Notes under the pieces: generated by a model
What the model saw: the letters and a program-made list of their open reading frames with translations, nothing else
Databases searched by the model: none
What the model was told of the DNA's origin: nothing
Shown: one piece after another, positions 25,344 through 58,683 of the stretch
Position numbering within the stretch: the stretch's first letter is position 1
Layout of the letters: each line of letters opens with the position of its first letter
From: a bacterium
Lineage (GTDB): Bacteria; UBA10199; 2-02-FULL-50-16; JAJFLM01
Direction: 5' to 3'
NCBI GenBank assembly: GCA_965216315.1
Contig: CBDCFN010000015.1
Coordinates: 96,001 to 160,000, forward strand
Length of the DNA stretch: 64,000 nt
Translations under genes and position numbers: made by a program

Positions 25344-25371
25344 TTATCGGATAAGTAACCGAAAAGGTGCT
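25344..25371 (-). promoter_or_regulatory. Shared alternative-sigma-like promoter motif (lysozyme)
   Basis: AGCACCTTT-TCGGTTACTTAT-CCGATAA. Confidence 0.6.
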
Positions 25372-25479
25372 CACAAGTTTTTCTGCTCCCCGCAAAAAAA
25401 TCGGCGACAAACACGAATATTGAGGAATTAGAGGTGCTGATCATGGTAAATACCTGTACCAGCCGGAAGGAGCACAATT

Positions 25480-26769
25480 ATGAGTGAGACAGCACAAATC
25501 AAACTTGGGGATAAAGAATATGATCTGCCCATATTGACGGGTACGGAGGATGAGCGTGCGATTGACATCCGAACGCTGCGTAAAAAGACCGGGCATATCA
25601 CCTATGACCCCGCTTACGTCAATACGGGGGCGTGCCGTTCAAGCATCACGTTTATTGATGGAGAAAAAGGAATACTCCGTTATCGCGGCATCCCCATCGA
25701 AATACTCGCGGATCATGCGGATTTCATCGAGACCGCGTATCTGTTGATCTATGGGCAGTTGCCCAACCAAGAACAGCGCAAAAAATTCAGCGATGATTTG
25801 ACATATCACTCTCTGATTCACGAAGACATGAAGAATTTCTTCAATGGTTACCCGGTCACGGCTCATCCCATGGCGATATTGTCCGCGATGGTCGGTTCGC
25901 TATCCGCTTACCATCCGAACGCGATCGATCCCGATATTTCTGAGCAAGATTCAGATCAGAATTATATTCGACTGCTCTCTAAAGTCCGAACGATAGCGGC
26001 CGCATCGCATAAGAAATCGATCGGGCAACCGATCATTTACCCGAGAAACGATCTCTCTTATTGCGCTAATTTTCTCTATATGACGTTTGCCGTTCCCTCC
26101 GAACCCTATGAAATAGACCCGGAAGTGGTTAAGGCACTGAACCTGTTATTGATCGTTCACGCCGATCACGAACAAAATTGCTCGACGTCCACAGTCCGGC
26201 TGGTCGCTTCTTCGAGAGCGAATATTTTTGCAGCCATCTCCGCCGGGATCAGTGCTCTCTGGGGGCCACTCCACGGAGGCGCCAATCAGAAAGTCATTGA
26301 AATGCTGGACCGTATTGAACGGGAACACCTCAAAGTCAGCGATATCGTAGCTGCCGCGAAGGAAAAAGACAGTTCATTTCGTTTAATGGGATTCGGACAT
26401 CGCGTCTATAAAAATTATGATCCACGGGCCAAAATATTAAAGGCTTCTTGTGACAAGATCTTCCAAAAACTGGGATACAAAGATCCCTTGCTGGAGATCG
26501 CAAAAGAACTGGAGGAAAGAGCCCTGAATGATTCTTATTTCATCGAAAAAAAATTATATCCCAACGTCGATTTCTATTCAGGTATTCTCTATCGTGCCTT
26601 GGGCATTCCTACAAACATGTTCACGGTTATGTTTGCTTTGGGACGACTGCCCGGATGGATCGCACATTACAAAGAATTAATGGCCGACCCTGAATTCAAG
26701 ATCGGAAGGCCGCGGCAACTTTATAGCGGTAATACGGAAACGCCCTATACGTCGATCGAATCGCGCTAA
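25480..26769 (+). CDS. gltA: Citrate synthase (type II)
   Basis: HADHEQNCST, GPLHGGAN, GFGHRVY, YPNVDFYSG. Confidence 0.97.
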   Translation: MSETAQIKLGDKEYDLPILTGTEDERAIDIRTLRKKTGHITYDPAYVNTGACRSSITFIDGEKGILRYRGIPIEILADHADFIETAYLLIYGQLPNQEQRKKFSDDLTYHSLIHEDMKNFFNGYPVTAHPMAILSAMVGSLSAYHPNAIDPDISEQDSDQNYIRLLSKVRTIAAASHKKSIGQPIIYPRNDLSYCANFLYMTFAVPSEPYEIDPEVVKALNLLLIVHADHEQNCSTSTVRLVASSRANIFAAISAGISALWGPLHGGANQKVIEMLDRIEREHLKVSDIVAAAKEKDSSFRLMGFGHRVYKNYDPRAKILKASCDKIFQKLGYKDPLLEIAKELEERALNDSYFIEKKLYPNVDFYSGILYRALGIPTNMFTVMFALGRLPGWIAHYKELMADPEFKIGRPRQLYSGNTETPYTSIESR

Positions 26770-26785
26770 TGTCTTGTTTTAAAAC

Positions 26786-27169
26786 TCAGTAGGTATCTTT
26801 GGGGTCGAAAACCGGCTCGCCGACGAATTTGAGCTCTCCGTCTTCGAGTTTTCGATAAAAGCAAGTCCGATAGCCGACATGACAGGCCGCGACGTTCTGC
26901 TTCACCTTGATCAGGATGGCATCCATATCACAGTCGACGTAGACCTCTTTGACCTCTTGGGTATGGCCGGAGGACTCCCCCTTGACCCAATACTTTTGCC
27001 GCGAGCGCGACCAAAAATTGGTATACGGCCCTTCGAGGGTCGCCTTGAGCGAATCCCGGTTCATGTAGCCAACCATCAAGAGTTCGTTATTATCAATGTC
27101 CTGAATGATCGCCGTCACCAGACCCTTGTCGTCGAATTTCACCTGATCGAGGATGTCTTCTAAACTCAT
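26786..27169 (-). CDS. hisI: Phosphoribosyl-AMP cyclohydrolase
   Basis: WSRSRQKYWVKGESSG, DCDMD, ACHVGYRTCF. Confidence 0.95.
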   Translation of the reverse strand: MSLEDILDQVKFDDKGLVTAIIQDIDNNELLMVGYMNRDSLKATLEGPYTNFWSRSRQKYWVKGESSGHTQEVKEVYVDCDMDAILIKVKQNVAACHVGYRTCFYRKLEDGELKFVGEPVFDPKDTY

Positions 27170-27236
27170 GGGAGGAGTTCTCGCTAAAGCCCGCTCATTT
27201 GTCAAATTGAAGGGTTACCCGGGCGCTCTGATAGTT

Positions 27237-27263
27237 AGCAACTTTCCCGCCCTCTGACCGAAA
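27237..27263 (+). promoter_or_regulatory. Shared alternative-sigma-like promoter motif (27286 gene)
   Basis: AGCAACTTT-CCCGCCCTCTGA-CCGAAA. Confidence 0.6.
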
Positions 27264-27285
27264 TTCAGGCCTGGGACCAGGGTTT

Positions 27286-29358
27286 ATGGGAATCTACACA
27301 CTCGCAGCACCACTCAGCACGACGACGTTGGCGGCCAGCTCCTTCCAAAACTGGTCACTGCGGCTCTATGGCCGGGCCGTAACCCTCGGGGAGCGGACCC
27401 AGCAACTCGCCCAAGAGACGGGTTTGAGCGACTTTTTGCTCGGCCCGGATGGGAGCCGCCGCCGTGATCTCCTGGCGCGCACCCCCAAACTCAGCTCCCT
27501 CGTTCAAAGCCATGACGGCCTGCGGACCTTTCATCTTCAGGGTCGGCTCTCCGTCTATCCGCAGGTCACCCAACATCCTCATTGGGTCGAGCTGATTACC
27601 CTACTCGCCGGACCGACAAGTGTGGGCCTCGATGGCCACCCTCGTATCCACCGGGAAAGCTTCCAACAATTCCTTCAACATATTCCCCACGTCCTCGCTG
27701 ACGGGGCTGAACTCTTGGACTGGCTGGACGCGCTCGAAAAGGTACTGCCGGAAGCCCTGCGCACGAGCGAGGAAGATGCTCATTCGATGCAACGGGCTAT
27801 TCGTGCCACGCGCACCATGATTAACACGGCTTCGGTGACGGCACCACCGGATATGTGGTTGCTCCGCCAAATACTTTCGACGCATGAAGAACTAGGCCTC
27901 TTGCAGGACTTGAATAGCGGCATGACGATTAACGTCGCCGAGTACGCCGCGCGTAACGAGTTGGATGAACGTCAACTCGGCATCGACCTCGAGTTTCTCT
28001 TCGCGCGCGGTTACCTCGACCGTACCCCTCAAGGCTATGTCAAGACCACCTCAACCGCCTCCTACGTCCTTGAAGAGATCGTGGCCCTCCCGACTCAATA
28101 TCGCACGGACATGACTGGCGAATTGATCAGCTGGTTCAAAGGTGAGACCGGACTGGCCCGGGAAGAGTTGATTGAAGGCTGGCTGGGAAGCCGCATCGCC
28201 AGCCGCACACCAACCGCCGGCTGGACCGCATCGACCCATGAAATAGAGATTGGCTATCGTGTTGTCCCCTTAGTCCTTGCCCTTAATGCTGCAGGTTTAT
28301 TGAAAGGTATCCGGCGCGGTCGCGAGTTTAATCCCCCTCATTTTACTCTTGAGATGAAGCAGCTCTTTGAAGAGGCGGGCATTTTAAGCGAGGGAAAAGT
28401 AACGTCCTTAGGCCTGCGCATGCTCAGGCGTGGTCCCGGCCCTTTCGGCATCATCGGAACCTATCATACCTATACAACCCAACACACACAGCTCCTGCAA
28501 GCGAATGGCCTCAAACCACATGTGCAGCGCGGACCGAATGTCGCTGCCAGTCGCGATGCGAATCGCCGTGACTTTGAAAATGGAGTGCGTCAACTGGAGA
28601 AGTATTTCGAAGCTACAGACTGGCAACCAACGGTCGTGATTGAACATGCCTTGGGTCATGGGGTCGCCATTCAGGAATTCGTCAAACGCTTTGGCGCAGA
28701 CGGCCTCCGTTTCTTCGGTTTTGATTACGAAGCCAAGGCCCTCGATGCCGCCAAGGGTGAGCAAGCAGCAGGCACACTACCCGCTAATATGACTTTCGCC
28801 CCTCCAACCGATATCGCCAAACCCGAACGACTGATCAAATTCCTCAGCCTGTCTTTAAGCGATCGGGATTTATCTGCTTTGAGCGAGGATGAGTTATCCA
28901 CCCTCATGAATGAACCCTTAACTGAGGAAGACTTTGCACGTGTTCAACAAGAACGCATCGTCATGATCGTTGGTGCCGGATTCCATGAAGCACGTTTGGA
29001 TGACGACGCGTTGGTAGAAAAACTCAAACTTTATCGCCAAGCCGGCATCCTGATGATGCCGGTCGAGGCCTCGGCCCTGACGACACCAATGCAGCGGGCC
29101 AGTGCCTGGCAAAGTTACAACGCCGGTTTTACCTGGGTCCATGAAACATCGGGACAGCGCCTCCGCTCTCCTGTGCGCTATACATCTCCCCATCATCGCC
29201 ACAGCTGGCCTGACTTGTTTCAGGCGGCGGGTTACCGCATCGAAGAACATTATTCTCAAGGTACCCGTCCTCTCTTTCCTTACGTCGCACCCAGGCCGGA
29301 GAATCCACCGATCAGTTATACATTCCTGGCTGTTCCCCGAGCGACAAAAGAGATCTAG
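27286..29358 (+). CDS. AprA-related class I SAM methyltransferase-like protein with N-terminal extension
   Basis: Winged-helix-like LEFLFARGYL; HVQRGPNVAAS, VIEHALGHG (degenerate motif I), GFDYE, DIAKP, GFHE. Confidence 0.55.
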   Translation: MGIYTLAAPLSTTTLAASSFQNWSLRLYGRAVTLGERTQQLAQETGLSDFLLGPDGSRRRDLLARTPKLSSLVQSHDGLRTFHLQGRLSVYPQVTQHPHWVELITLLAGPTSVGLDGHPRIHRESFQQFLQHIPHVLADGAELLDWLDALEKVLPEALRTSEEDAHSMQRAIRATRTMINTASVTAPPDMWLLRQILSTHEELGLLQDLNSGMTINVAEYAARNELDERQLGIDLEFLFARGYLDRTPQGYVKTTSTASYVLEEIVALPTQYRTDMTGELISWFKGETGLAREELIEGWLGSRIASRTPTAGWTASTHEIEIGYRVVPLVLALNAAGLLKGIRRGREFNPPHFTLEMKQLFEEAGILSEGKVTSLGLRMLRRGPGPFGIIGTYHTYTTQHTQLLQANGLKPHVQRGPNVAASRDANRRDFENGVRQLEKYFEATDWQPTVVIEHALGHGVAIQEFVKRFGADGLRFFGFDYEAKALDAAKGEQAAGTLPANMTFAPPTDIAKPERLIKFLSLSLSDRDLSALSEDELSTLMNEPLTEEDFARVQQERIVMIVGAGFHEARLDDDALVEKLKLYRQAGILMMPVEASALTTPMQRASAWQSYNAGFTWVHETSGQRLRSPVRYTSPHHRHSWPDLFQAAGYRIEEHYSQGTRPLFPYVAPRPENPPISYTFLAVPRATKEI

Positions 29359-29406
29359 CTGAAAGCCATAATCCCGTATCGTCCGAGACTGGCAAAATGG
29401 CCACGG

Positions 29407-30702
29407 TTAACTTAAGACTTCGAAACGAAATTCGGGTAGCGAGAGGTAATACTCACCCTCCTTGCAGGTAAAACCACCTAAATCATCCCCCGGTAATGCA
29501 ATCCCCCACCACTGGTTGCCATTCGCTTCCGGCCATTGCTTCCGATATCTATCCAGGATACCCAATTTGATATTCGACAAGACCTCATACTGATCTCCAT
29601 ACCAATAGCCTTTCATCTTCATGTAGCGAAAGCGGAAGATATACATGGCCAGTCCTAACCATTGAATCTGTGTCTCCTTATCGCGATCAAGCTTAAACGA
29701 GCGCTTACAAGACATTCCCTTCATCTCGTAATCTGTGTCGATGGTTGAAACCGACACGGCCTGGACTTTTCCATCCAATGTTCTTGCCACAATGAAAAAC
29801 GATTCGTTGTTTATTTTTCGCTCAGGCGTCGCACAGCCGTTAAATTCTTCAAGAAGAACACCTTCCAACATGTACTGCGCCTGTTGATAGGTAACGCGTT
29901 CAATGATGACAGGACAAGCTTGCCCCTGTCTTTTTAAGACAAACTTGAGTGCATGATAATCGAGATGCACATGGGCTCCGAATCGGAGTGCCGCTTCAGG
30001 TGTAATTTCCGGCACGGTAAAGGCATCGGGGTCAACGTACGTACGACCTTCATAGGCAGCAATACGTCTATCAAGCCTTTTTCCGCCAGCGATACAGTCG
30101 TTTACTATCGCACACAGCTCGGTACGTGTCGCCCCTCCATGCATTGCCGCCGTTAATAGATCCAACGGATGAAATTTTGGCAAATTCGCACTACACAGAC
30201 ACGATATAAACTGAAAAACCGAAAGACGATCCGATTGAAAGAGCGTCAACAGCTGATTAATCGTCGGGGCGGCCGTCGGATCCATTAGCATGGATTCCAT
30301 CGCCGGTATGAACCTATTCAATTTCACCCGATGGCCCAGATTGCGGGTCTCGCTCTGAAAAAGTCGCAGCATAGCGAGACTCTGATCACTGGTCAGGATT
30401 TCACGTCTTTCTTGCCCTGATGCCGCGCTCAAAATCCGTAGCACCTGTTGGCCCAGATTATCATCACGCCACAGGGCTTGAACGACGGGTGTTGAAGTCA
30501 GTGCCCGCAGTGACGTCAAACTCTGCAGCGGCTCTTGTTCGAGACCGTGTAGATCTTCCAGAACTTGCTCAACGCGCTCCGCACTTTCGATATGAGTGAC
30601 CTGCGCGGAAAGAGCCTGTTGAAAATGCGCTAGCGAAACAATGGAGGCACTTGCGCACAAACTAGCAGAATTCAAAAATAGGCTGGGGGCGGCACTCAGC
30701 AT
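29407..30702 (-). CDS. Hypothetical protein (possible C-terminal GNAT-like fold)
   Basis: 431-aa ORF with Ser/Ala/Leu leader; FFIVARTLDGKVQAVS ... WLGLAMY. Confidence 0.6.
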   Translation of the reverse strand: MLSAAPSLFLNSASLCASASIVSLAHFQQALSAQVTHIESAERVEQVLEDLHGLEQEPLQSLTSLRALTSTPVVQALWRDDNLGQQVLRILSAASGQERREILTSDQSLAMLRLFQSETRNLGHRVKLNRFIPAMESMLMDPTAAPTINQLLTLFQSDRLSVFQFISCLCSANLPKFHPLDLLTAAMHGGATRTELCAIVNDCIAGGKRLDRRIAAYEGRTYVDPDAFTVPEITPEAALRFGAHVHLDYHALKFVLKRQGQACPVIIERVTYQQAQYMLEGVLLEEFNGCATPERKINNESFFIVARTLDGKVQAVSVSTIDTDYEMKGMSCKRSFKLDRDKETQIQWLGLAMYIFRFRYMKMKGYWYGDQYEVLSNIKLGILDRYRKQWPEANGNQWWGIALPGDDLGGFTCKEGEYYLSLPEFRFEVLS

Positions 30703-30707
30703 GAGTT

Positions 30708-30738
30708 CTTATCCCCTATAGATTTCAAATAGTTGTGA
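30708..30738 (-). promoter_or_regulatory. Degenerate copy of the shared promoter motif
   Basis: TCACAAC-N16-GGGATAAG, ending 5 nt before ATG. Confidence 0.4.
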
Positions 30739-30770
30739 TCTGAGCCTTGCGAGAATTTTCGAAAGCGCGC

Positions 30771-33700
30771 TTAAGCCTTCTCGACACGCTTTCCTTTGCC
30801 GTAGTTGGGATCGATCTTATACTGCTTGATCTTGAGATAAATCGTGCGTCGCGCCACTTGAAGCAGTTCCGCCGCCTTCATTTTATTGCCGTGGCACCTA
30901 TCTAAAGCTGCCATGATCAGGCGCTTTTCGATCGGGGCAATCGCCGCTTCGAGGCTCCCGAGGTGGCTGAAGCTGCGCTCTTGTTGGGCGGCCTCGAGGA
31001 TGTGCGGACTCAGCAATGACGGGCCAACCACATCGGCACCCAAGACCATGAGTCGATGCATCTCATTCTGCAACTCACGAATATTTCCCGGCCAGGGATA
31101 ATCCATTAACGCGCGTATCGCTCCTTTACTAAGCCGAAGCTTACGTTTGCCAGCTTCTTGGGCCGCTTGTTCTAGAAAATGCTCGGCTAGCAATAGGATA
31201 TCTTCACCGCGCTCGCGCAGCGGTGGCACATTGATTTGAACGACATTCAAGCGATAATAAAGATCCTTACGAAACTCCTGCCGGGCCACCATGGCCTTAA
31301 TATCACGGTGCGATGCCGTGATAATCCGCACGTCGACTTTCTGGTAGTCACGCCCACCCACCCGGCGCACCTCGCCTTCCTGCAATACGCGTAATAACTT
31401 CGCCTGCATGCCCAATGACATGTCACCTACTTCATCGAGAAAAAGGGTACCCCGGTGAGCCATCTGGAAGAGACCGATCTTATTATTATCAGCACCGGTA
31501 AAAGCGCCCTTCACATGTCCGAACAACTCGCTTTCCAGCAGGGTTTCGGCAAGGGCGGCACAGTTTTCCGTTATGAACGGCGCAAAATTGCGGGGACCAT
31601 TGTAATGCAAGGCCTGGGCAATCAGTTCCTTTCCGGAACCCGATTCACCGTGAATAAAGACCGGACTATGGGTCTGGGTCACGCGATCCAAGGTCACAAG
31701 AACCTTTTTGAGCGCCGGACTCTTCCCGATGATATTATCATAGCTGTATTTGAGGCGAAGCTCCTCGTGCTCACGCTTCATGCTCTCACGGGCCGCCTCC
31801 AAATGCTGGAGACTTTCGTGTAGATCTTGTTCGAGGCGTGCATTGAGGCTCTCAATCGTTACCTTGGAACGCTCCAGTTCTTCGATCTTCCTTTCGTTAT
31901 CGCGGTGCAGACGCGTGTGCTCAAGAATCAATGATGCTTGATCCGCCAAAGACTCAATCATCTGTAAATGTTCGGACTTCAAGACACCGGGGCGGAAGCG
32001 GTTGTCGAGATAAATCAAGCCCACCGTGCGACGTCCTGTCAGTAACGGCGTGCACAGCACTGAACGAATTTCAAGGGCGTGCACCGACTGAGACTCCGCA
32101 AAACGCTCATCGGTTTGCGCGTCCAAGCTCACAATCGTCTTTCCAGTCCGCATCACTTCCTTGGCAATTGTGCGCGAAATTTCCTCTTCATCGCGATCCA
32201 AATCCTGACTGTCGAAATTACGCGCTGCCCTGATATCCAAATCCTGCCGATCGGACAGAATCACAAAACCACGCTCGGCATCCGTCAGATGAATCGCCGC
32301 ATCTAGGACCTCCTCTAGGAGCTGATCCACATCGTGCATCATTAACAAGCGGCGATTGATATCACTGCTTTCGATAAACGATGTCGCATCCATTGATTGT
32401 GACACGTTTTCCTTTTTTTCCGCTGGACCGAGCGCTGCTAAGGCCTGACGAATCTTTTCCTTTTTGCGATCCCGCATAAAGCTTTGCTGAAATGACTCCG
32501 GCACACTGGCCTTCAATTCATCAATGACTTGGAGGGCCTTGTTGTATGACCTTTTGGCGGCGAGCGTTTTTCCGCTGAGTTGAGCAAGCTCCCCTTCGTC
32601 ACTTAAAATCTGCCACAGATTATTTTTGGCCTGTCGTTCCAGGGCATCTTTTTTAAGCGCGGCCAACCATGCCGCAACGGGATAATCGGCATACTTCTCC
32701 TGCGCAATTCGGAATTTGGCCTCGAACCAATTGGCCTGTAATTCATAGGACTCCTGCCCGGTACTCGTGACATAATCGCGCAAAATCCCTAATACCTCCT
32801 CGCACGTATTGAGATCCTTTAGTTCCAGCGCGCGATACCCTTTAGCGAGTTGAGCCTGAAACATCGCCTGCGATTCACCCAGGTCTTTAGCAAAAGTGAG
32901 AGCTTGTTCAATATACTTGGCAACACGTTCCTCATTGCCCTTGCCCTGCTCTCCAACTGTCAACAAGAAGAGATTATAGGCGATCAGTGATTGGAGTCCG
33001 TGTTCCTGCGATAAGGCGAGGGATTCTTCGAGCGCTTCCTCCGCCTGACTGAGGCGACCAAAGTAAAAATAAAGATTGCCCAAATTACTCAGAATCGAAG
33101 CCAACGAACTCGGATTATCTAAGGCACGCGCCAGTTCAAGAGCCTGGATAAAGAGCTCATACGCACGGTCCCAACGGCCTTGTTCCTGCTGCAGCGTCGC
33201 CGCATTGATCAGAAGACTTAATTGATGATCTTGCCGTTCGCTTTCTGCCGCATAGGCCGCAGCCTTTTCAAAACTGGCCGCCGCTTCGACCGGCTTACTA
33301 AGCGCCTGCAAGACGAGAGCACGGTAATTTTCAAAACGCGTGCGCTGGACGAGCGTCGCTTGTTCTATCTCGTTGGCTGGAACAGATTCAATATTTTGAG
33401 TCGCCGTATCTAAGGCCCCTTCACGATAGGCTAATTGCACGGCAAGTATTACGTGTTCAAATGAGCGTTCACCACCTAAGGCGGGATGAGCCGCCATTTC
33501 AGCAAGAAAGGCATGGGCTTCGGGATATCGCCCCTGCTCGATCAAGACGTGACCCATCGCCGCATAAAACGCTTCGACGACGCCTTGCTCCGTTTCCGTT
33601 TTAAAGCGCGAGAGCTGCGATTCAGCAAACCGCTGGGCTTCATGACGATCTCCACTCCGTACCAGCGCCAATAACTCATCGACGACTTCCTGAGCGCTCT

Positions 33701-34634
33701 GCTTGCCTTGGGCACGGCTGCGAACACGTTGCTTTTTCGGGGCGCGTGTTTTTGAAACTGAACTCACCGCCTTTTCAGCACTCAGGGCAAAATTTTCTCT
33801 TTCTTCTGCATTGAGAAGTTCGATAATGGCTCGTGCCTTCGCGAGGCGCCGCTTTGGGTCCTTTTCGACCAGGCGTTCAATAATTTTGATAATTCCAACC
33901 GGAACTTCATCGCTGGCGCGCAGGGGAGTAAGGTCGATGTCCTGCTGACGCAGGGCCTCAAGATACATCGCAAAGCTTTGCCCGCGTTTGACGGGCAACC
34001 GCCCTAAGGCCATTTCATAGAGCACAACTCCAAACGAATAAAGATCCGCACGCTGATCATAGTCTTGCTGTGCCAATACTTCCGGCGCCATATAGGCCAA
34101 TGTACCGGCCGTCTCTTTAACCTGATCCTTATTTTTCGCGGCAACAGCCAAGCCGAAATCGATGATCTTCAAACGAAGTCGTTCGAGCGTTTGAGACGCA
34201 TCCGCATCATGGACCATGCCAACGAGCATATTGTCGGGCTTGAGATCGCGATGAATGATTTTGTTAGTGTGTAAATAATCAAGGGCCCAACAGGCCTGGA
34301 CGATCAATTGAAAGACCGCGTTCCAATCTTTTTTTTGGCATGCACTGACAAAGTCCTCTCCCTCGACATACTCCGAGGTATAGTAGAGTTCTTTACCATC
34401 ATTAGAATAATCAAGGAGCCGCGCTAAATGCGGGTGCGAAAGTTTTTTAAGAAGCGCGCATTCCGACTTAAAGGCCTTGACGAGAGTCGGTGTGGCCTTG
34501 GCGCCAAGCAAGCGTTTGAGGACCTTGAGTTGATGACCTTCTTCTCTATCCCGCACGAGATAAGTCGTACCGCCTGCACCGGACCCGAGTTCCCGCTCGA
34601 TCTCATAACATCCTGCTAATACAGCCGATTTCAC
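30771..34634 (-). CDS. Ser/Thr kinase-TPR-GAF-sigma54 enhancer-binding protein with Fis HTH
   Basis: HRDLKPDN, DFG, GTLAYMAPE; TPRs; GAF; GESGSGKE, GAFTGA, FLDEVG, WPGNIRELQN; GNKMKAAELL. Confidence 0.93.
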   Translation of the reverse strand: MKSAVLAGCYEIERELGSGAGGTTYLVRDREEGHQLKVLKRLLGAKATPTLVKAFKSECALLKKLSHPHLARLLDYSNDGKELYYTSEYVEGEDFVSACQKKDWNAVFQLIVQACWALDYLHTNKIIHRDLKPDNMLVGMVHDADASQTLERLRLKIIDFGLAVAAKNKDQVKETAGTLAYMAPEVLAQQDYDQRADLYSFGVVLYEMALGRLPVKRGQSFAMYLEALRQQDIDLTPLRASDEVPVGIIKIIERLVEKDPKRRLAKARAIIELLNAEERENFALSAEKAVSSVSKTRAPKKQRVRSRAQGKQSAQEVVDELLALVRSGDRHEAQRFAESQLSRFKTETEQGVVEAFYAAMGHVLIEQGRYPEAHAFLAEMAAHPALGGERSFEHVILAVQLAYREGALDTATQNIESVPANEIEQATLVQRTRFENYRALVLQALSKPVEAAASFEKAAAYAAESERQDHQLSLLINAATLQQEQGRWDRAYELFIQALELARALDNPSSLASILSNLGNLYFYFGRLSQAEEALEESLALSQEHGLQSLIAYNLFLLTVGEQGKGNEERVAKYIEQALTFAKDLGESQAMFQAQLAKGYRALELKDLNTCEEVLGILRDYVTSTGQESYELQANWFEAKFRIAQEKYADYPVAAWLAALKKDALERQAKNNLWQILSDEGELAQLSGKTLAAKRSYNKALQVIDELKASVPESFQQSFMRDRKKEKIRQALAALGPAEKKENVSQSMDATSFIESSDINRRLLMMHDVDQLLEEVLDAAIHLTDAERGFVILSDRQDLDIRAARNFDSQDLDRDEEEISRTIAKEVMRTGKTIVSLDAQTDERFAESQSVHALEIRSVLCTPLLTGRRTVGLIYLDNRFRPGVLKSEHLQMIESLADQASLILEHTRLHRDNERKIEELERSKVTIESLNARLEQDLHESLQHLEAARESMKREHEELRLKYSYDNIIGKSPALKKVLVTLDRVTQTHSPVFIHGESGSGKELIAQALHYNGPRNFAPFITENCAALAETLLESELFGHVKGAFTGADNNKIGLFQMAHRGTLFLDEVGDMSLGMQAKLLRVLQEGEVRRVGGRDYQKVDVRIITASHRDIKAMVARQEFRKDLYYRLNVVQINVPPLRERGEDILLLAEHFLEQAAQEAGKRKLRLSKGAIRALMDYPWPGNIRELQNEMHRLMVLGADVVGPSLLSPHILEAAQQERSFSHLGSLEAAIAPIEKRLIMAALDRCHGNKMKAAELLQVARRTIYLKIKQYKIDPNYGKGKRVEKA

Positions 34635-38681: not shown

Positions 38682-38691
38682 ACCGAAGAGG

Positions 38692-38719
38692 TCTTCGGGA
38701 TGATGACAAGAAAGTTGCT
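38692..38719 (-). promoter_or_regulatory. Shared alternative-sigma-like promoter motif (lipid kinase)
   Basis: AGCAACTTT-CTTGTCATCATC-CCGAAGA. Confidence 0.6.
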
Positions 38720-38736
38720 TAAAATATAAGCACTTA

Positions 38737-48854: not shown

Positions 48855-49985
48855 ATGGACTATCAAGCCACTCTCACCCAGCTCCGTAAACAGGGACTCT
48901 ACCGGGAACTCGACGAAGTCGAGGGCCCCCAAGACGCCGCAATCGTGATCCAGGGCCAGCCCTATCTGAACTTCTCAAGCAACAATTACCTCGGCCTGGC
49001 GACAGATCCACGTCTGGCCGCCGCGGCCGCGGCCGCCACCGATCGCTATGGCTGGGGGGCCGGATCGGCGGCCTTGATCAGCGGTCAAATGAGCCCACAC
49101 GAACAATTGCGCCGTGCCCTGGGCGCGTTCTTTTCTGCCGAGGCCGCACTCCTCTTCAACTCAGGTTATCATGCCAATGTGGGAGCCATCCCGGCGCTGG
49201 TCGGCCCGTCAGACCTGCTTTTTTCCGATGCGTTGAATCACGCCTCGCTTATCGATGGCTGTCGCCTGGCCCGTTGTCCCACGCATATTTACCGTCATGG
49301 CGACACCGATCACTTAGCTGAACTCCTCGAACAACATCCCGCGACCGGTGAACGCTGGATCATTACCGAGTCGGTGTTCTCGATGGATGGCGATCAGGCC
49401 CCACTTGAAGCCATCGCCCAACTCGCCACGCAATATAATGCCAATATTTATCTTGATGAGGCCCACGCCGTCGGTGTGTTCGGAGAACAGGGACGAGGCC
49501 TATGGGAAACCGTAGAAACACCGCTTGCTGCGCCTAATATCATCCGCATGGGCACCTTCGGCAAGGCGCTAGGATCCTATGGCGCCTTTGTCCTTGGCAG
49601 TTCCGATAGCATCGAATATCTTCTCAATCGCGCGCGAACATTTATTTATACAACGGCGCTACCGCCCGCCGTCACCGCGGTCAATCACTGTGCCTTGGAA
49701 ATAGTCGCAACCGAGCCGGAACGACAGATGCAATTGTGGCAACATGTGCACCACTTCGCCGATGAACTGGAAATCAAAGCGGAATCACCGATCATCCCCT
49801 GGATCATTCCCGGCAATGAAGAGGTCGTAACCGCAGGAAAGAAATTGCGTAACGCCGGCTTTTTGGTCCGCGCGATACGCAGCCCGACGGTGCCCGTCGG
49901 CAAAGAGCGTTTGCGCATCACTTTGTCGGCAATGCATACCGAGGAACAGGTAGAGAAACTTATTAACGCGATTAAAACCATTTAG
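48855..49985 (+). CDS. bioF: 8-amino-7-oxononanoate synthase
   Basis: NFSSNNYLGL, NHASLIDG, ESVFSMDGD, DEAH, GTFGKALG. Confidence 0.95.
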   Translation: MDYQATLTQLRKQGLYRELDEVEGPQDAAIVIQGQPYLNFSSNNYLGLATDPRLAAAAAAATDRYGWGAGSAALISGQMSPHEQLRRALGAFFSAEAALLFNSGYHANVGAIPALVGPSDLLFSDALNHASLIDGCRLARCPTHIYRHGDTDHLAELLEQHPATGERWIITESVFSMDGDQAPLEAIAQLATQYNANIYLDEAHAVGVFGEQGRGLWETVETPLAAPNIIRMGTFGKALGSYGAFVLGSSDSIEYLLNRARTFIYTTALPPAVTAVNHCALEIVATEPERQMQLWQHVHHFADELEIKAESPIIPWIIPGNEEVVTAGKKLRNAGFLVRAIRSPTVPVGKERLRITLSAMHTEEQVEKLINAIKTI

Positions 49986-52791: not shown

Positions 52792-52820
52792 TTGCAACCA
52801 CTAATCCCCTTGATTAGAGT
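52792..52820 (+). promoter_or_regulatory. Sigma70-like promoter, probably leaderless proA transcript
   Basis: TTGCAA-N17-TAGAGT, 6 nt before ATG. Confidence 0.5.
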
Positions 52821-52826
52821 AGGTCT

Positions 52827-54086: not shown

Positions 54087-54448
54087 ATTCGGAAGAGCTC
54101 GCAAAAGAGATTCTGGCTGCTGCTCAAGATGTCAAAGCCGAGGACCCGGTGGTCCTCGATCTGCGCACACTCACAAGTTTTACCGATTTTTTCGTCATCG
54201 TCAGTGGACGTTCCGACCGGCAGGTCCAGGCGATTGCCGACCGCGTTACCGAGGACCTGAGAGAAAAGAAAATCAAACCCATGGGCATTGAAGGCTATGA
54301 TAGCGGCCATTGGGTCCTCATCGATTATGGTGCCGTCGTACTCCATGTATTTTACGGTGAAACACGTGAATTCTATTTACTTGAACAACTCTGGAGTGAT
54401 GCCCCCCGGCTAGAGGTCAATAGTGATGATCAAAAGGCGGCACCGTGA
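54083..54448 (+). CDS. rsfS: Ribosome silencing factor
   Basis: DVKAED, DFFVIVSG, WVLIDYG, YLLEQLW. Confidence 0.93.
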   Translation: MNSEELAKEILAAAQDVKAEDPVVLDLRTLTSFTDFFVIVSGRSDRQVQAIADRVTEDLREKKIKPMGIEGYDSGHWVLIDYGAVVLHVFYGETREFYLLEQLWSDAPRLEVNSDDQKAAP

Positions 54449-56001: not shown

Positions 56002-56015
56002 TAGGGGAGCGTAAC

Positions 56016-56501
56016 ATGCCATCTTTCGACATTGTCAGCGAATTAGATCGCCAAGAACTCAAAAACGCCGTCGACCAAGTCATCCGCGAAGTCAAACAAC
56101 GCTATGACTTCAAGGGCAGCAAATCAGAGATCAAGGAAGAGAATGACAACCTGACCTTTATTTCTGACGACGACTTTAAAATGAAGGCCTTGATCGACAT
56201 CTTCCAATCCAAGGCCGTCAAACGTGGCCTCGACCTCAAAGCCTTTGATTATGGAAAAATAGAACCTGCTGCAGGCGATACCGTACGTTGTTCGGTGAAA
56301 GTCGTCGAAGGTATCGAAAAAGAAAAGGCTAAAGATCTGGTCAAAAAGATCAAGGACATGAAACTCAAAGTTCAGGCTGCCATTCAAGAGAACCAAGTCC
56401 GCGTGACCGGAAAAAAACGCGACGATTTGCAGGACGTCATCGCCGCCGTCAAAGGCTTGGACTTTGCTATTCCGTTGCAGTTTGAAAATTTCCGGGACTA
56501 G
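56016..56501 (+). CDS. yajQ: YajQ family nucleotide-binding protein
   Basis: MPSFDIVS, RYDFKG, RVTGKKRDDLQ, NFRD. Confidence 0.95.
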   Translation: MPSFDIVSELDRQELKNAVDQVIREVKQRYDFKGSKSEIKEENDNLTFISDDDFKMKALIDIFQSKAVKRGLDLKAFDYGKIEPAAGDTVRCSVKVVEGIEKEKAKDLVKKIKDMKLKVQAAIQENQVRVTGKKRDDLQDVIAAVKGLDFAIPLQFENFRD

Positions 56502-57316
56502 CTATCGCGAGGTCTCGATGACGGTGGCTTACTCCGCCGCAGCAACTGGTTACTTAGTTGATAAAGGTGAAAACTAAGTTTGCGGTGGAGCCCGAGCTGC
56601 ATTACTTGCTCGGCTAAGGCGAGGGAATGACTCAAGAGGCGCTCGATATGCTCAGGCTTGAGGTGACCGCTGGCCGCTCTCAGGGCTTGGCTCACTAATT
56701 TCAAATCATCAAAGTCTTCATAGGCCAGCGTCTGGCGAGCCTCATCGTCATCAATTTCCTCATTTTCTTCATCATGCTCTGCGTGGATCAGCAATATCGC
56801 TAAATCAACTTGCTCTTTAGCAAACTCGAGAGCACGAACTTCATCATTCAACTGAGAGGCATAGTGGCTCGCACGGCCCAAAAGGTCATACTTCTCGAGA
56901 CCGGCCTCCATGCCCATCAAGGCCTCCTGGAGCAGTATAAGTGCCTCCGTCTCAATAAGTTCAGCGAGTAGAGCATCGGCGAGTAACGGCGTGTATTTGA
57001 AGCCGGTCGGATCGTCTTCGCTGGGCGGGACCGAGGGGCTTTTACTTAAGCCGGCTGTCATCCGGTCATGAAATAATTGAATACGGTCCAAGCCACTCAC
57101 GGGTCGACCCATCCTTACGGCGTAGAGCATGCAGAAATCCCTGAGGGGAGCGACCAACATGCCGGCAATTAACTGCCGGCCATCGGTCACCGAGTCATCG
57201 ACGATGCCGGCTTCCCGCGCTGCTTGGTACAAATTATTGACTAACGAGGGCTTGGGAGAACCCGCCGCAAGCAAACAAGCGGACTGACTAGAGATGCTGA
57301 CGCCAAGCAGATTCAT
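56498..57316 (-). CDS. Hypothetical helical protein, paralog of the adjacent 57332-58570 gene
   Basis: Shared leader and N-terminal domain (FHDRMTAGL vs FHERVTKGL). Confidence 0.7.
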   Translation of the reverse strand: MNLLGVSISSQSACLLAAGSPKPSLVNNLYQAAREAGIVDDSVTDGRQLIAGMLVAPLRDFCMLYAVRMGRPVSGLDRIQLFHDRMTAGLSKSPSVPPSEDDPTGFKYTPLLADALLAELIETEALILLQEALMGMEAGLEKYDLLGRASHYASQLNDEVRALEFAKEQVDLAILLIHAEHDEENEEIDDDEARQTLAYEDFDDLKLVSQALRAASGHLKPEHIERLLSHSLALAEQVMQLGLHRKLSFHLYQLSNQLLRRSKPPSSRPRDS

Positions 57317-57331
57317 TGTAATGACCCCGAT

Positions 57332-58570
57332 TTAGTCTCGCTCCGAGGGACCTTTGACAGGCCGGGTGGGGCGGCTGTCCTCACCGTCTTCTAGTTCGCC
57401 CTCTAGTTGTTGACGCATTTTATCCTCATGACGCCCGGCCCATATATGTAGACGTTCGGCCACATCTCCTTCAAACTTGTGTTCCGTAATCTGTTTTAAT
57501 AGCGCTAATGACTGCTCATCAACCGGCAGCCGATGCAATACAGCAAACATTTGTCTGAAAAAACCACCCGCCCACTCATGTTCACCCCCTTGAGCCAAGG
57601 TCCGTCCGGCGATCCAGAGATATTCGAAGCGGCGTGCGACATCCTCACGATCGATATGGCCAATAATGCGCTTGATATTATCGTAATGGGCATGAGCCTT
57701 ATCTTCTTCGCCTTGACTCAATTGCCGCAAGACCGATTCGGCTTCTTCGCCGATGACATCAACCAGCTTCGGCATGATTTTCCGTAGCGGCTCTTCCACG
57801 TTACTTGGCAACAACTCCTGAACCAGTTGTTGTTTGAGATGTTCGAGAGATGTTTTTTCGTGTTCCTGGGCCACACCGCTTAAGTCTGATTCCTTTAAAG
57901 TGCGCTGTGCATATTCGATTAAGTCGAGACGTTCTTGTATATTAAAAAAACTCAGGTCTTCGATCACCATGCGAAGTTGATTAAACGCGACGACATATAC
58001 TGTGCTGTCTTCCCCCCTATTGGCAATCTTTTGCCAATCCGCATCCACCTTCAACATTGTAAATGCAATTAATGACTTTGCTAGAGAGATAGCGTGAATT
58101 CTTTTACCCATTGTCACTGCATCAAGGATATCCTGAATCCTTAGGCGGCGTTCAACAGCATAATCGGTAAGATCCGTTACCTTAGGACCATCATCATGGG
58201 CTCCAAAAACTTTCAACGAGACAGCAAGAGAATCGCTGCCTAGCTCTTCTAACAATAAATTGGCGAGATAAAGGCAATAAATGCTTCTATTAGAGCTATC
58301 AACCAACTCGCCAAGCTCACCTATCTGATCGGCATCGAGGCCCTTAGTGACACGTTCATGAAACACAGAGAGGCTACTGGTTTTGCCGCAGACATCATTG
58401 ATCTGATTGGCGAGCAACAGTGCCAATAGCGAACGCGGTCCTTCATGTTTATAGACAGTCCCTCGCTCTTCATGGTGAAGAACGAGAAAATTACTCCAGA
58501 GTCTTGGAGTCTTACTGCTGGCGAGGATCGCCGTCGTCGCCAACGATGACGCATTCATCAATATATGCAT
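57332..58570 (-). CDS. Hypothetical helical protein
   Basis: 412-aa ORF, Ser/Ala/Leu leader, shared promoter motif upstream. Confidence 0.7.
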   Translation of the reverse strand: MHILMNASSLATTAILASSKTPRLWSNFLVLHHEERGTVYKHEGPRSLLALLLANQINDVCGKTSSLSVFHERVTKGLDADQIGELGELVDSSNRSIYCLYLANLLLEELGSDSLAVSLKVFGAHDDGPKVTDLTDYAVERRLRIQDILDAVTMGKRIHAISLAKSLIAFTMLKVDADWQKIANRGEDSTVYVVAFNQLRMVIEDLSFFNIQERLDLIEYAQRTLKESDLSGVAQEHEKTSLEHLKQQLVQELLPSNVEEPLRKIMPKLVDVIGEEAESVLRQLSQGEEDKAHAHYDNIKRIIGHIDREDVARRFEYLWIAGRTLAQGGEHEWAGGFFRQMFAVLHRLPVDEQSLALLKQITEHKFEGDVAERLHIWAGRHEDKMRQQLEGELEDGEDSRPTRPVKGPSERD

Positions 58571-58576
58571 GGCCGA

Positions 58577-58606
58577 CTTATCGCCTACCGCAGGCGCTTG
58601 TTGTGA
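58577..58606 (-). promoter_or_regulatory. Shared alternative-sigma-like promoter motif (58570 operon)
   Basis: TCACAACAAG-CGCCTGCGGTAG-GCGATAAG, 6 nt before ATG. Confidence 0.55.
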
Positions 58607-58616
58607 CGCGTAAGGA

Positions 58617-58644
58617 TTATCTGTTTACTGGAGTCAACAGATAA
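58617..58644. promoter_or_regulatory. Operator-like palindrome between divergent orphan genes
   Basis: TTATCTGTTTAC-TGGA-GTCAACAGATAA (11/12 arm match); third half-site CAACAGATA at 58658-58666. Confidence 0.5.
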
Positions 58645-58655
58645 CGAACTGCATA

Positions 58656-58683
58656 GACAACAGATATTTCTAAAAGTCGAAAA
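58656..58683 (+). promoter_or_regulatory. Shared alternative-sigma-like promoter motif (58693 gene)
   Basis: GACAACAGA-TATTTCTAAAAG-TCGAAAA. Confidence 0.5.

Follow-up and report, generated by a model that had tools for sequence, protein, structure and literature searches.

A probable FliA-like sigma factor promoter of an uncultured bacterial phylum, with frequent leaderless geometry and orphan-rich targets in one genome

Introduction

Alternative sigma factor regulons as such are already familiar, and several described systems invite comparison with the locus presented here. In Bdellovibrio bacteriovorus, 92 of the 140 attack-phase promoters that were mapped carry a CCGATA -10 element, and a role as global regulator has been put forward for FliA (Karunker et al. 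2013, PMC3627812). HrpL of Pseudomonas syringae and Dickeya acts as an alternative sigma factor and drives a secretion apparatus together with dispersed effector genes (PMC3879358, PMC2957411). Chlamydia trachomatis, which is non-flagellated and has a non-flagellar type III secretion system (T3SS), uses a FliA-type sigma-28 in its developmental programme (PMC12282069). The "needle-less" T3SS* of Myxococcus xanthus acts in contact-dependent prey lysis and is linked to the breakdown of prey peptidoglycan (review, PMC12428579).

Here, we describe a two-block motif in a window of 64,000 nucleotides (the whole stretch of DNA analysed), in the surrounding genome and in the uncultured phylum to which it belongs. 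The motif would be an alternative-sigma promoter, most likely read by the single FliA/WhiG-family (sigma-28-type) sigma of the genome. The canonical FliA class 3 promoter consensus is TAAAGTTT-N11-GCCGATAA. Class 3 promoters of E. coli and Salmonella have the same -10 octamer and the same N11 spacer as our motif, and their -35 element stands in the same register with five of eight bases in common. Unlike there, the -35 core is CAAC and not TAAA(GTTT), the region 4.2 helix of the sigma factor is changed, and neither flagellar or chemotaxis targets nor FlgM are found here.

As in Bdellovibrio, a sigma-28-type promoter would serve a large and mostly non-flagellar gene set, which in that organism comprises surface proteins, proteases and uncharacterised proteins (PMC3627812). 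The -35 element differs, however, being TTAAG with N16 in Bdellovibrio (PMC3627812) and GCAAC(TTT) here, and our sigma factor is a paralogue in its own right, with its gene in a T3SS cluster. In the flagellated Bdellovibrio, FliA has the flagellum among its tasks, whereas the present genome lacks flagellin and rod genes; leaderless geometry and an N-terminal tag, both predicted here, are not mentioned for Bdellovibrio in the available parts of that paper (PMC3627812).

The likeness to HrpL lies in a two-block promoter with fixed spacing that precedes apparatus genes as well as dispersed genes, here as predicted from sequence (PMC3879358, PMC2957411). Our predicted regulon is roughly ten times larger, and the export of its targets is a prediction. 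HrpL belongs to the ECF (group 4) sigmas, which have about 180-200 aa and no regions other than 2 and 4, while the present one, with 275 aa, is a group 3 sigma of FliA/WhiG type; it is HrpL-like in its predicted role but stands outside the HrpL family. The HrpL box is GGAACC-N16-CCACNNA, and in the hrp system promoter plus N-terminal composition have been used to list effectors.

With C. trachomatis our organism shares a FliA-type sigma in a non-flagellated bacterium with a non-flagellar T3SS, but about 300 predicted promoters and an altered -35 set it apart (PMC12282069). Like T3SS* of M. xanthus, the system is non-flagellar, occurs in a former "deltaproteobacterial" lineage and has no obvious needle or adjacent secretin, and beside the prey peptidoglycan breakdown reported there we find a lysozyme, an SLT domain and an M23 peptidase among the targets; a dedicated sigma or promoter motif for T3SS* is not mentioned in the available parts of the review (PMC12428579).

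In our literature search, no account was found of a sigma-28 paralogue whose -35 specificity would be re-tuned and that is hard-wired into a non-flagellar T3SS cluster, that is kept across a whole uncultured phylum, or that is predicted to serve about one tenth of the genes, with one third of its promoters implying leaderless transcripts. New here are the leaderless promoter geometry, the orphan-rich targets and the uncharged N-terminal tag.

Results and Discussion

Form of the motif and its copies in the window

A preliminary description of the window listed five copies of CA[A/C]C-N15-[C/G/T]CGAW, each of which is present with the sequence given there (Table 1), and a degenerate N16 copy before the gene ending at 30702, which the weight matrix recovers with a spacer one base longer. 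As had been noted, AGCAACTTTC-N11-CCGAA is common to the copies at 27237 and 38692. The full motif reads (C/A)(G/A)CAACTTTT-N10-GCCGATAA, equivalent to GCAACTTT-N11-GCCGATAA. Over approximately 350 intergenic sites, the -10 consensus (G.53, C.54, C.96, G.98, A 1.0, T.75, A.73, A.73) spells GCCGATAA; the suggested resemblance of CCGATA(A) to the sigma28/FliA -10 element therefore extends to eight of eight positions. The -35 consensus, (C/A)(G/A)CAACTTTT, is likewise in line with the reading of this element as CAAC rather than TAAA. Two other points did not stand. The motif had not been seen before housekeeping starts, but the sites before uvrA (19.2 bits) and smc (13.6 bits) had been missed, so housekeeping genes are not wholly free of it; and Pfam gives no support for the label "AprA-like methyltransferase" of the 27286 gene. 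In a relative (genome G025), the homologue of the latter has kept the motif at a distance of 22 nt from its ATG, on the upstream side. For the protein of 57332-58570, no homologue was found in the three closest genomes and no match in the ESM Atlas. The site inside the aminotransferase gene may act as a promoter within that gene or may be a coding match due to chance.

Table 1. Promoter-type sites and neighbouring genes in the window, with the candidate sigma factor gene
Position	Strand	Feature	Score (bits)	Remarks
627..656	+	weak promoter-type site (weight matrix)	13.6	smc start (668) 12 nt on
668		smc, SMC by Pfam		charged N-terminus, untagged
8589-11435		uvrA, UvrA by Pfam		untagged
11501..11530	-	promoter-type site	19.2	66 nt before uvrA
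24637-25323		phage-type lysozyme gene, Phage_lysozyme by Pfam		charged N-terminus
25343..25372	-	promoter-type site	19.3	20 nt before ATG at 25323
25346-25369	-	core copy		CACC-N15-CCGAT
27236..27265	+	promoter-type site	19.0	21 nt before 27286-29358
27239-27262	+	core copy		CAAC-N15-CCGAA
27286-29358		orphan gene, 690 aa, without Pfam family		uncharged N-terminal tag
29407-30702		orphan gene, 431 aa, without Pfam family		leaderless geometry, tagged
30708..30738	-	promoter-type site, spacer +1 base	15.0	6 nt before ATG of 29407-30702
37491-38681		DAGK-type lipid kinase gene, DAGK_cat by Pfam		leaderless geometry, tagged; first charged N-terminal residue not before about residue 40
38691..38720	-	promoter-type site	18.6	9 nt before ATG at 38681
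38694-38717	-	core copy		CAAC-N15-CCGAA
49737..49766	+	site inside aminotransferase gene	19.9	220 nt before 49986 gene
57332-58570, then 56498-57316		orphan, 412 aa, without Pfam family		leaderless geometry, tagged
58577..58606	-	promoter-type site	18.6	7 nt before ATG of 57332-58570
58580-58603	-	core copy		CAAC-N15-GCGAT
58655..58684	+	promoter-type site	15.0	9 nt before ATG of 58693-59607; divergent from 58577..58606
58658-58681	+	core copy		CAAC-N15-TCGAA
58693-59607		orphan gene, 304 aa, without Pfam family		leaderless geometry, tagged
G000 C16:350583-351410		FliA/WhiG-like sigma gene		outside window; sole FliA/WhiG type in genome

Genome-wide enrichment and leaderless geometry

A loose form of the pattern has 20 matches in the window, 14 of them in coding DNA, compared with 8.5 +/- 2.9 in 100 shuffles, none of which reached 20. 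Genome-wide there are 631 matches, 205 of them in the intergenic 11.4% of the genome, and 162 of these 205 lie at most 100 nt upstream of a same-strand start as set by our crude in-house gene caller. Positions that the pattern leaves free are informative in the intergenic matches and uninformative in the coding ones. The weight-matrix scan also places the sites in a cluster 0-100 nt upstream of same-strand starts, and at 14 bits or more it yields 293 intergenic sites versus 83 coding sites. With the refined matrix at nominal spacing and the same threshold, 224 intergenic sites stand against 4.2 +/- 1.9 in Markov resimulations; here the matrix was trained on the same sites that were later counted, a circularity from which the regular-expression tests are free. 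The enrichment is confined to the spacing given above, which is near-invariant: at 16 bits or more, it has 183 intergenic and 22 coding sites, compared with 29 and 12 for a spacer longer by one base, 22 and 18 for two bases, and 0 to 6 intergenic sites for the remaining offsets. None of the 45 tRNA genes has a site within 200 nt upstream, and hence the motif is not the housekeeping promoter. Judged by these counts, it is a genuine promoter type with about 300 copies in the genome.

An ORF start follows the -10 element by 5-12 nt in 102 of the 293 sites and by 13-20 nt in 22, and 90 of the 113 starts at 0-12 nt are ATG; in two distant relatives, an ORF start lies 4-12 nt past CGATAA in 16 of 37 sites. 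In about a third of the promoters the ATG is only 6-10 nt away, which implies leaderless mRNAs. Transcription is predicted to start about 6-8 nt past GCCGATAA, and in roughly one third of the promoters this start point would be the ATG itself. Which sigma factor binds, where transcription starts and that the genes are co-expressed we infer from the DNA letters.

A FliA-like sigma factor encoded in a T3SS cluster

A list of the sigma factors, proposed earlier as a check, was obtained with Sigma70_r2 and comprises five genes of the sigma-70 family: RpoD, RpoH, a pair of ECF size and a single FliA/WhiG-like gene. The last carries the Pfam domains Sigma70_r2 and Sigma70_r4, and group 3 sigmas align with it over its full length. 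In the PDB it matches WhiG and FliA chains best (E 3e-24 to 2.5e-13), and its best NCBIfam match is TIGR02479 FliA_WhiG, where its 133.1-133.5 bits fall below the curated cut-off of 189.6 bits; this indicates a divergent branch, and we call the protein FliA-like, not FliA. Between regions 2 and 3, its sequence is conserved relative to these chains. The helix of region 4.2 reads SKSWTSRLH versus TESRVSQIH in WhiG, and the SKSWTSRLH type is retained in 45 of 55 orthologues. Relative to canonical FliA, the parts that read the -10 are kept and the helix that reads the -35 is altered. A FlgM-type anti-sigma gave no family match in the genome (98.3% complete).

The sigma gene is located within a non-flagellar T3SS cluster, where it is flanked by the SctJ gene on one side and by the genes of a FliG-like protein, SctL and SctN on the other. 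The cluster holds the FHIPEP, FliP, FliQ and FliR families, the T3SS ATPase, FliH/SctL, a YscO-like protein, FliN/SctQ, YscJ and a protein with FHA plus YscD_cpl; Bac_export_2 is found elsewhere in the genome. The non-flagellar core (SctV, U, R, S, T, N, L, Q, J and D, without filament, hook or rod) is present, and no flagellin, rod or hook genes were found at the genome's completeness of 98.3%. For the needle SctF there is no significant match (best E 0.14), and the two secretin-family genes of the genome are both far from the cluster. A gene of 162 aa after the sigma gene gives weak SctI matches only via its orthologues (E 0.086 and 0.2). Most of the 57 relatives' loci with enough flank show the order TPR chaperone, SctJ, sigma, SctI-like, FliG-like, SctL, with sigma and FliG-like as the most constant pair (54 of 57).

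A motif site precedes the operon that holds the sigma gene, as it does in 25 of 37 relatives' loci, and would provide positive feedback on the sigma factor. The predicted regulon of about 260-300 promoters would include the operons of the T3SS cluster, among them that of the sigma gene itself, and dispersed genes, mostly orphans, about half of which encode tagged proteins. The location in a T3SS cluster fits the earlier idea of a host- or prey-interaction phase.

Both the motif and the sigma factor extend over the phylum. CAAC-N16-CGATAA occurs 11-107 times per genome in all 93 genomes, versus 0-12 for the reversed control pattern; a sigma orthologue is present in 91 of the 93 genomes and in 63 of 63 of high quality, FHIPEP in 91, and flagellin in only 12. 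Taken together, it is probable that the motif is an alternative-sigma promoter, with the FliA-like sigma of the T3SS cluster as its most likely reader.

Target genes and the uncharged N-terminus

Genes without a Pfam family make up 51 of 75 targets, compared with 27 of 75 controls. This excess of orphans supports the proposal of scattered accessory genes; a few housekeeping genes, uvrA and smc, also carry the motif. With PFK, ribBA and panD they represent ordinary cytoplasmic genes among the targets, and several DUF4423 genes are found there as well.

At most one charged residue at positions 2-25 was observed in 129 of 264 targets versus 164 of 2064 other genes (background 8%). The first 25-30 residues of these targets form an uncharged tag rich in Ser, Ala, Leu and Thr, often with LLA(S/A)S-like stretches. 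The tagged set includes two Ser/Thr kinases, a nucleotide cyclase, a GGDEF domain, kinase-receiver hybrids and helicases, and some members have ordinary metabolic domains, e.g., RtcB or an amidase; the latter may indicate that the tag is no secretion signal or that some matches are due to chance.

We tentatively propose, at somewhat less than an even chance, that this charge-free N-terminus is the export signal of the phylum's T3SS. Tagged targets may count as candidate T3SS substrates, with indirect evidence from a shared uncharged Ser-rich start, the lack of Sec-like hydrophobicity, unrelated cargo domains and predicted co-regulation with the T3SS cluster. A serious competitor, though we would not favour it outright either, is that promoter and sigma act as proposed and the tag has another role, perhaps that of an atypical Sec signal peptide lacking a positive n-region or of a tether to the membrane or an assembly site, or else is a by-product of leaderless translation. 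The richness in Ala, Leu and Ser and the LLA(S/A)S-like stretches recall the h and c regions of signal peptides; yet signal-peptide-like hydrophobicity was seen in only 6 of the 129 tagged targets, versus 100 of the 164 uncharged non-targets, and the kinase, cyclase, GGDEF, kinase-receiver and helicase domains, which use ATP or GTP, would be useless in the periplasm. Nor is the tag confined to leaderless genes: tagged proteins also make up 34 of the 82 targets with a promoter distance of 13-40 nt and 42 of the 111 in the range of 41-150 nt. The tag is enriched in Leu, whereas classical T3SS signals are described as poor in this residue; the search that found no needle protein, the lack of a secretin adjoining the cluster and the metabolic look of some tagged proteins also speak for a role outside the T3SS. 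On the other side, the 129 tagged proteins fall into 106 BLAST clusters, 94 of them singletons, and are mostly unrelated to each other, which is the way modular export signals behave.

Other readings of the motif

That one of the two ECF-type sigmas (C16:1659626 and C16:2109907) reads the motif appears very unlikely. ECF promoters typically combine an "AAC" -35, e.g., GGAAC or GAACTT, with a "CG" -10 about 16 nt apart, and the CAAC(T)TT of our motif resembles such a -35. However, a survey with the two ECFs of this genome as queries (E <= 1e-15) found relatives of the first in 24 and of the second in 31 of the 93 genomes, versus a motif over-represented in all 93, and families f3, f4, f11 and f19, for example, have neither ECF, yet 25-98 pattern matches per genome. 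ECF sigmas usually autoregulate, but neither ECF gene has a correctly oriented site upstream, and the eight informative positions of GCCGATAA exceed a typical ECF -10. Of the two options left by the preliminary description, a divergent FliA-like or an ECF sigma, the FliA-like one is hence favoured by the -10 element, the spread over the phylum and the patchy occurrence of the ECFs.

Even less probable is a transcription-factor binding site or a special class of RpoD promoters that involves no alternative sigma. The DUF4423 genes, as targets themselves, could be taken in its favour. Against it speak the build of the motif from two rigidly spaced blocks in a strict orientation, a constant 6-10 nt to the ATG, which is promoter and not operator geometry, the lack of dyad symmetry, the 45 of 45 tRNA genes without the motif, and its dissimilarity to TTGACA-N17-TATAAT.

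An origin by chance or from the composition of AT-rich intergenic DNA, for which the approximately 8.5 matches expected per window and the coding location of 14 of the 20 could be cited, is refuted by the resimulation, spacing and reversed-pattern controls, with the strand and distance bias relative to starts and the motif kept before an orthologous gene pointing the same way, and retains practically no probability.

Implications of the predicted FliA-like sigma regulon

Under the FliA-like sigma reading, promoter and tag together provide a way to list candidate secreted proteins of uncultured organisms from their sequence, and they point to a lifestyle of cell-cell interaction. If the tag is indeed a T3SS signal, each genome would encode approximately 120-190 secreted or injected proteins (5-8% of the proteome), mostly orphans, plus kinases, cyclases, lipid-acting enzymes and cell-wall hydrolases. 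Effectors and apparatus would be switched on together by the cluster-encoded sigma-28 paralogue, often from leaderless mRNAs. With the size of the Legionella effector set as a yardstick, this would be a set on the same scale and recognisable by sequence alone, and the entire uncultured phylum (93 of 93 genomes) would be a lineage of obligate interaction, as predators or in association with hosts.

Flagellated members of the phylum have a second, canonical FliA besides the FliA-like paralogue, and would represent a natural case of duplicated sigma factors that insulate their regulons by differing promoters. In 8 of 13 cases, their flagellin genes are preceded by another promoter, which reads T(A/C)AAGTT-N11-12-TCCGT.

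An oriented two-block motif upstream of gene starts

All five copies of the motif CA[A/C]C-N15-[C/G/T]CGAW that the preliminary description had placed before unrelated genes of the window were confirmed in position and strand, as was the sequence AGCAACTTTC-N11-CCGAA common to the copies at 27237 and 38692. The copy before the 30702 gene, described as degenerate with an N16 spacer, was recovered by a weight matrix. By itself, the loose pattern shows only a modest excess in the window, with 20 matches versus 8.5 +/- 2.9 in 100 shuffles, none of which reached 20; 14 of the 20 matches are coding. The signal lies in the placement of the matches. The whole genome (2.96 Mb in 16 contigs) was annotated by a simple codon-usage caller, giving 2,383 genes on 90% of the DNA, and gene starts are those of this crude caller. 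Genome-wide, the loose pattern occurs 631 times, 205 times within the intergenic 11.4%, and 162 of these 205 matches lie at most 100 nt upstream of a start on the same strand. In these 162 upstream matches the free positions of the pattern carry information, which is absent from the 426 coding matches. The full motif reads (C/A)(G/A)CAACTTTT-N10-GCCGATAA, equivalent to GCAACTTT-N11-GCCGATAA, and its architecture is that of two oriented blocks directly upstream of gene starts.

At a threshold of at least 16 bits, the nominal spacing yields 183 intergenic versus 22 coding sites. A spacer longer by one base gives 29 versus 12, by two bases 22 versus 18, and the remaining offsets 0-6 intergenic sites each; the enrichment is limited to the nominal spacing. 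With the refined matrix, 293 intergenic and 83 coding sites reach at least 14 bits. Intergenic sites with nominal spacing number 224, versus 4.2 +/- 1.9 expected from first-order Markov resimulations, a count for which the matrix was trained on the very sites that it scores; the tests based on regular expressions are free of this circularity. The objection that the motif might be no commoner than in shuffled or intragenic DNA can be set aside, as it exceeds the shuffles and is far more frequent in intergenic than in coding DNA. Inside an aminotransferase gene of the window, one site scores 19.9 bits. The following gene of the biotin operon begins 220 nt downstream of this site, which may act as an internal promoter.

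The -10 block, GCCGATAA, is identical to the sigma-28 element to which a resemblance had been noted at first. With the N11 spacer, the -35 block GCAACTTT aligns to the enterobacterial sigma-28 element, TAAAGTTT, with 5 of 8 bases in common. None of the 45 tRNA genes has a motif site in the 200 nt upstream, and the motif therefore represents an alternative promoter class rather than the housekeeping one.

Leaderless geometry

Genes with an intergenic site scoring at least 13 bits at most 150 nt upstream were defined as targets (n = 264). Distances between the end of GCCGATAA and the nearest downstream start of a long ORF peak sharply at 5-12 nt, with 102 of 293 sites versus 22 at 13-20 nt; of the 113 starts that lie 0-12 nt from the -10, 90 are ATG. 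This geometry explains why the copies had been seen about 5-25 nt upstream of starts, an observation that holds; the accompanying impression that housekeeping starts lack the motif does not, as promoter-type copies overlooked by eye precede uvrA (19.2 bits in the weight matrix) and smc (13.6 bits) in the window.

At sigma-28 promoters, transcription starts a few bases after the -10. Since the ATG follows at 5-12 nt, leaderless mRNAs are to be expected, and a share of about one third of the promoters (102/293) implies that such mRNAs would be widespread in the lineage. Among the first listed sites ending in CCGATAA in two distant relatives from two other families, 37 of 40 have a downstream ORF; this ORF starts 4-12 nt after CGATAA in 16 of the 37 cases, and in 15 of the 37 it carries the N-terminal tag described below. 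The sequence logos of PMC3627812, built from sequences upstream of mapped starts, show the CCGATA box as the -10.

Probable assignment to a FliA-like sigma factor

The preliminary description had left the choice between a divergent FliA-like and an ECF sigma factor. A Sigma70_r2 profile search found five genes of the sigma-70 family in the genome: RpoD, RpoH, two of ECF size and one that is FliA/WhiG-like. All 93 genomes of our phylum sample (24 families) contain CAAC-N16-CGATAA, at 11-107 copies each, versus 0-12 for the reversed control pattern. An orthologue of the FliA-like factor is present in 91 of the 93 genomes and in 63 of the 63 high-quality ones (56-84% identity, full-length matches), and the two genomes that lack it are 73% and 78% complete. 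Relatives of the two ECF factors occur in only 24 and 31 of the 93 genomes, and no motif was found upstream of the two ECF genes themselves in the genome under study. Based on this spread, on the patchiness of the ECF factors and on the missing motif at their genes, we regard the FliA-like sigma factor as the probable reader of the motif.

This factor is a divergent branch, scoring 133 bits on TIGR02479 versus a curated cut-off of 189.6, with WhiG and FliA as its best solved relatives. The alignment with these shows good conservation between regions 2 and 3. The recognition helix of region 4.2 reads SKSWTSRLH versus TESRVSQIH in WhiG, and is retained in 45 of 55 orthologues by a scripted count. 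Such a combination fits a promoter in which the -10 is retained and the -35 altered. A 998-residue target with a ResIII/DEAD helicase and a Sigma70_r4 domain, itself tagged, ranks fourth in the FliA_WhiG search of the genome.

A secretion cluster around the sigma gene

The sigma gene is embedded in a non-flagellar type III secretion (T3SS) cluster (see table), which begins with SctV (FHIPEP), an FHA plus YscD-type protein, TPR proteins and a small TPR chaperone. It continues with SctJ, two small orphan genes, the sigma gene, a 162-residue protein, a FliG-like protein, SctL, the SctN ATPase, a YscO-like and a SctP/FliK-like protein, FliM-like and FliN/SctQ proteins, FliO, SctR, SctS and SctT, and ends with two orphan genes whose sites are very strong, at 21.4 and 23.5 bits. 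SctU is encoded elsewhere in the genome. A lipoprotein of YscJ size is among the products of the cluster. No flagellin, rod or hook genes were found in the genome, which is 98.3% complete; a needle protein was not detected in it, and no secretin stands beside the cluster.

The cluster is conserved across the phylum, and 91 of the 93 genomes contain FHIPEP. Most of the 57 loci of relatives with enough flank repeat the order TPR chaperone, SctJ, sigma, 162-residue gene, FliG-like, SctL, in which the pair of sigma and FliG-like genes is the most constant part (54/57). We had considered the 162-residue gene, which overlaps the sigma stop codon, as an anti-sigma factor; its conserved C-terminus and weak PF17001 matches point instead to a rod protein of the SctI type. 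The FlgM family has no match in the genome. A motif site lies upstream of the operon holding the sigma gene, and at the same place in 25 of 37 loci of relatives, there mostly with a spacer two bases longer. The recurrence of this site suggests positive autoregulation of the operon.

Flagellin matches occur in only 12 of the 93 phylum genomes, 11 of them above the family cut-off (including the relatives G082 and G083; loci L132-L147). G082 and G083 have a second FliA (about 30% identity) with a canonical helix, on the contig of the flagellin genes. Canonical sigma-28 promoters were sought before the flagellin genes of the flagellated relatives, and 0 of 13 have a sigma-28-type -10 in the 350 nt upstream; the CGA(A/T)A element is absent from this stretch in 10 of 13. 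Eight of the 13 have T(A/C)AAGTT-N11-12-TCCGT, which is unlike the phylum-wide motif. Given a second, canonical FliA and a different flagellin promoter, the phylum-wide sigma factor is a separate, secretion-linked paralogue.

Target genes and their N-terminal tag

The expectation that the motif precedes orphan genes is in good agreement with the Pfam results: 51 of 75 targets (the first by genome position) have no Pfam family at E <= 1e-7, versus 27 of 75 non-targets drawn at random with an upstream gap of at least 40 nt (Fisher p = 1.5e-4). Overall, 166 of the 264 targets lay in the loci retrieved, and the Pfam scan covered 125 of these; the other 41 are untagged. Named targets include lysozyme, an SLT domain protein, an S8 peptidase, OmpA, CAP, patatin, pentapeptide and FGE-sulfatase proteins, three DUF4423 regulators, receivers and FHA domains; smc, uvrA, PFK, ribBA and panD, ordinary cytoplasmic genes, are also among them. 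Sec-like signal peptides are rarer in targets (40/264) than in other genes (549/2064), and so are multi-pass membrane proteins (4/264 versus 238/2064).

What the targets frequently have in common is a tag, an N-terminal stretch almost free of charged residues. In residues 2-25, K+R amount to 5.1% overall and 2.8% in the leaderless class versus 12.3% in other genes, D+E to 5.0% and 2.0% versus 12.1%, and Ser to 12-13% versus 6.5%. At most one charged residue in these positions is found in 129 of 264 targets versus 164 of 2064 other genes. The hydrophobicity of a signal peptide or membrane helix is reached by 6 of these 129 tagged targets versus 100 of the 164 uncharged non-targets, and several of the remaining 64 have weaker motif copies upstream. 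Of the leaderless targets, 53 of 71 carry the tag, as do 34 of 82 and 42 of 111 in the two leadered classes, whose -10 stands farther from the ATG. The first charged residue has its median at position 29. The tag comprises 25-30 uncharged residues, among which Ser, Ala, Leu and Thr abound. It frequently includes an LLA(S/A)S-like stretch, and its hydrophobicity is too low for a Sec signal.

The 129 tagged proteins form 106 BLAST clusters, 94 of them singletons, and 60 of the 91 searched against Pfam have no family. Domains among the others comprise two Ser/Thr kinases, a nucleotide cyclase, GGDEF, kinase-receiver hybrids, helicases, RelA/SpoT, pentapeptide, FGE-sulfatase, CAP, five LamG paralogues, RtcB, amidase and PFK. 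Five of the six window genes with which the motif was first associated are tagged; lysozyme, uvrA and smc are untagged. The 690-residue protein has a homologue in the close relative G025, again with a tagged N-terminus and a motif 22 nt before the ATG. For the 412-residue orphan, no homologue was found in the three closest genomes and nothing above noise in the ESM Atlas (best score 0.83). The near-palindrome TTTGTCAAAT upstream of the 27236 promoter, also found at the G025 counterpart, may be an operator of a DUF4423/TIGR02147 regulator, and gene-specific regulators may be layered on the sigma factor; a DUF4423 gene lies in the window.

Coordinates of features in the window and elsewhere in the genome (window positions unless a contig, C15 or C16, or a locus, L, is named)
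Feature	Position	Strand	Remark
DUF4423 gene	13074-13928
Near-palindrome TTTGTCAAAT	27205-27220		20 to ~40 nt upstream of the -35 of the 27236 promoter; G025 counterpart, L188 ~1275-1290
Target gene	27286-29358		690 aa; tagged
Target gene	29407-30702		tagged
Motif copy before the 30702 gene	30708-30738
Leaderless cases	30708-30702; 38691-38681; 58577-58570; 58655-58693
Kinase fusion protein	30771-34634	-	1,287 aa
Lipid kinase	37491-38681		tagged
Site in aminotransferase gene	49737-49766	+	19.9 bits
Orphan target gene	57332-58570		412 aa; tagged
Target gene	58693-59607		tagged
CT398-like protein	C15:161022-161678		L066:8986-9642; ~1 kb past window end
Helicase/Sigma70_r4 target	C16:91474-94470	-	L079:499-3495; 998 aa
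T3SS cluster	C16:339083-364413		loci L089, L119; outside window
FliA/WhiG-like sigma gene	C16:350583-351410		275 aa; Sigma70_r2

Proposed mechanism and comparison with known systems

From the sequence data, we propose that polymerase with the sigma factor of the secretion cluster binds GCAACTTT-N11-GCCGATAA and would start transcription 6-8 nt downstream. The factor would drive its own operon and the other operons of the cluster, and apparatus and dispersed targets would rise together. Among public sequencing runs, four of unstated kind, all from one study, contain the stretch, and none is recorded as RNA. On unrelated, mostly orphan proteins, the tag would serve as a sorting signal. Export by the T3SS is our leading, though tentative, reading of it, since cargo that uses ATP would be useless in the periplasm and the tag is without Sec features. 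We hold it to fall somewhat short of an even chance because no needle or dedicated secretin was found, the Leu enrichment is atypical of known T3SS signals, and some of the cargo looks metabolic. Alternatively, the tag may be an atypical Sec signal, or a tag without a role in export.

The nearest precedent is the FliA regulon of Bdellovibrio, for which PMC3627812 reports TTAAG-N16-CCGATA at 92 of 140 attack-phase promoters and proposes FliA as a global regulator. One sigma factor for an apparatus and scattered effector genes also recalls HrpL and the hrp box as described in PMC3879358 and PMC2957411, although HrpL is an ECF factor and the one here is FliA-like. In Chlamydia, sigma-28 is kept without flagella, and ChIP-seq gave only two targets according to PMC12282069. 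For prey lysis, Myxococcus relies on a needle-less T3SS* whose substrates are given as unknown in PMC12428579. The present factor departs from canonical FliA in its curated score, its -35 element and the lack of flagellar targets with FlgM; on these three grounds we file it as a FliA-like paralogue that, by analogy, would function like HrpL. In open-access text we found no paper on a sigma-28 paralogue tied to a non-flagellar T3SS cluster. UBA10199 is named in 27 papers there, and in none of the matches listed (20 of the 27) does it appear in title or abstract.

Two further genes deserve mention. The 1,287-residue fusion in the window joins a Ser/Thr kinase, TPR, GAF, a sigma-54 activator and HTH_8, an unusual path within a single protein from kinase signalling to sigma-54 promoters. 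Chlamydial CT398 reportedly interacts with sigma-54 and with the ATPase of the T3SS; a CT398-like protein with a coiled coil and a zinc ribbon adjoins rpoD.
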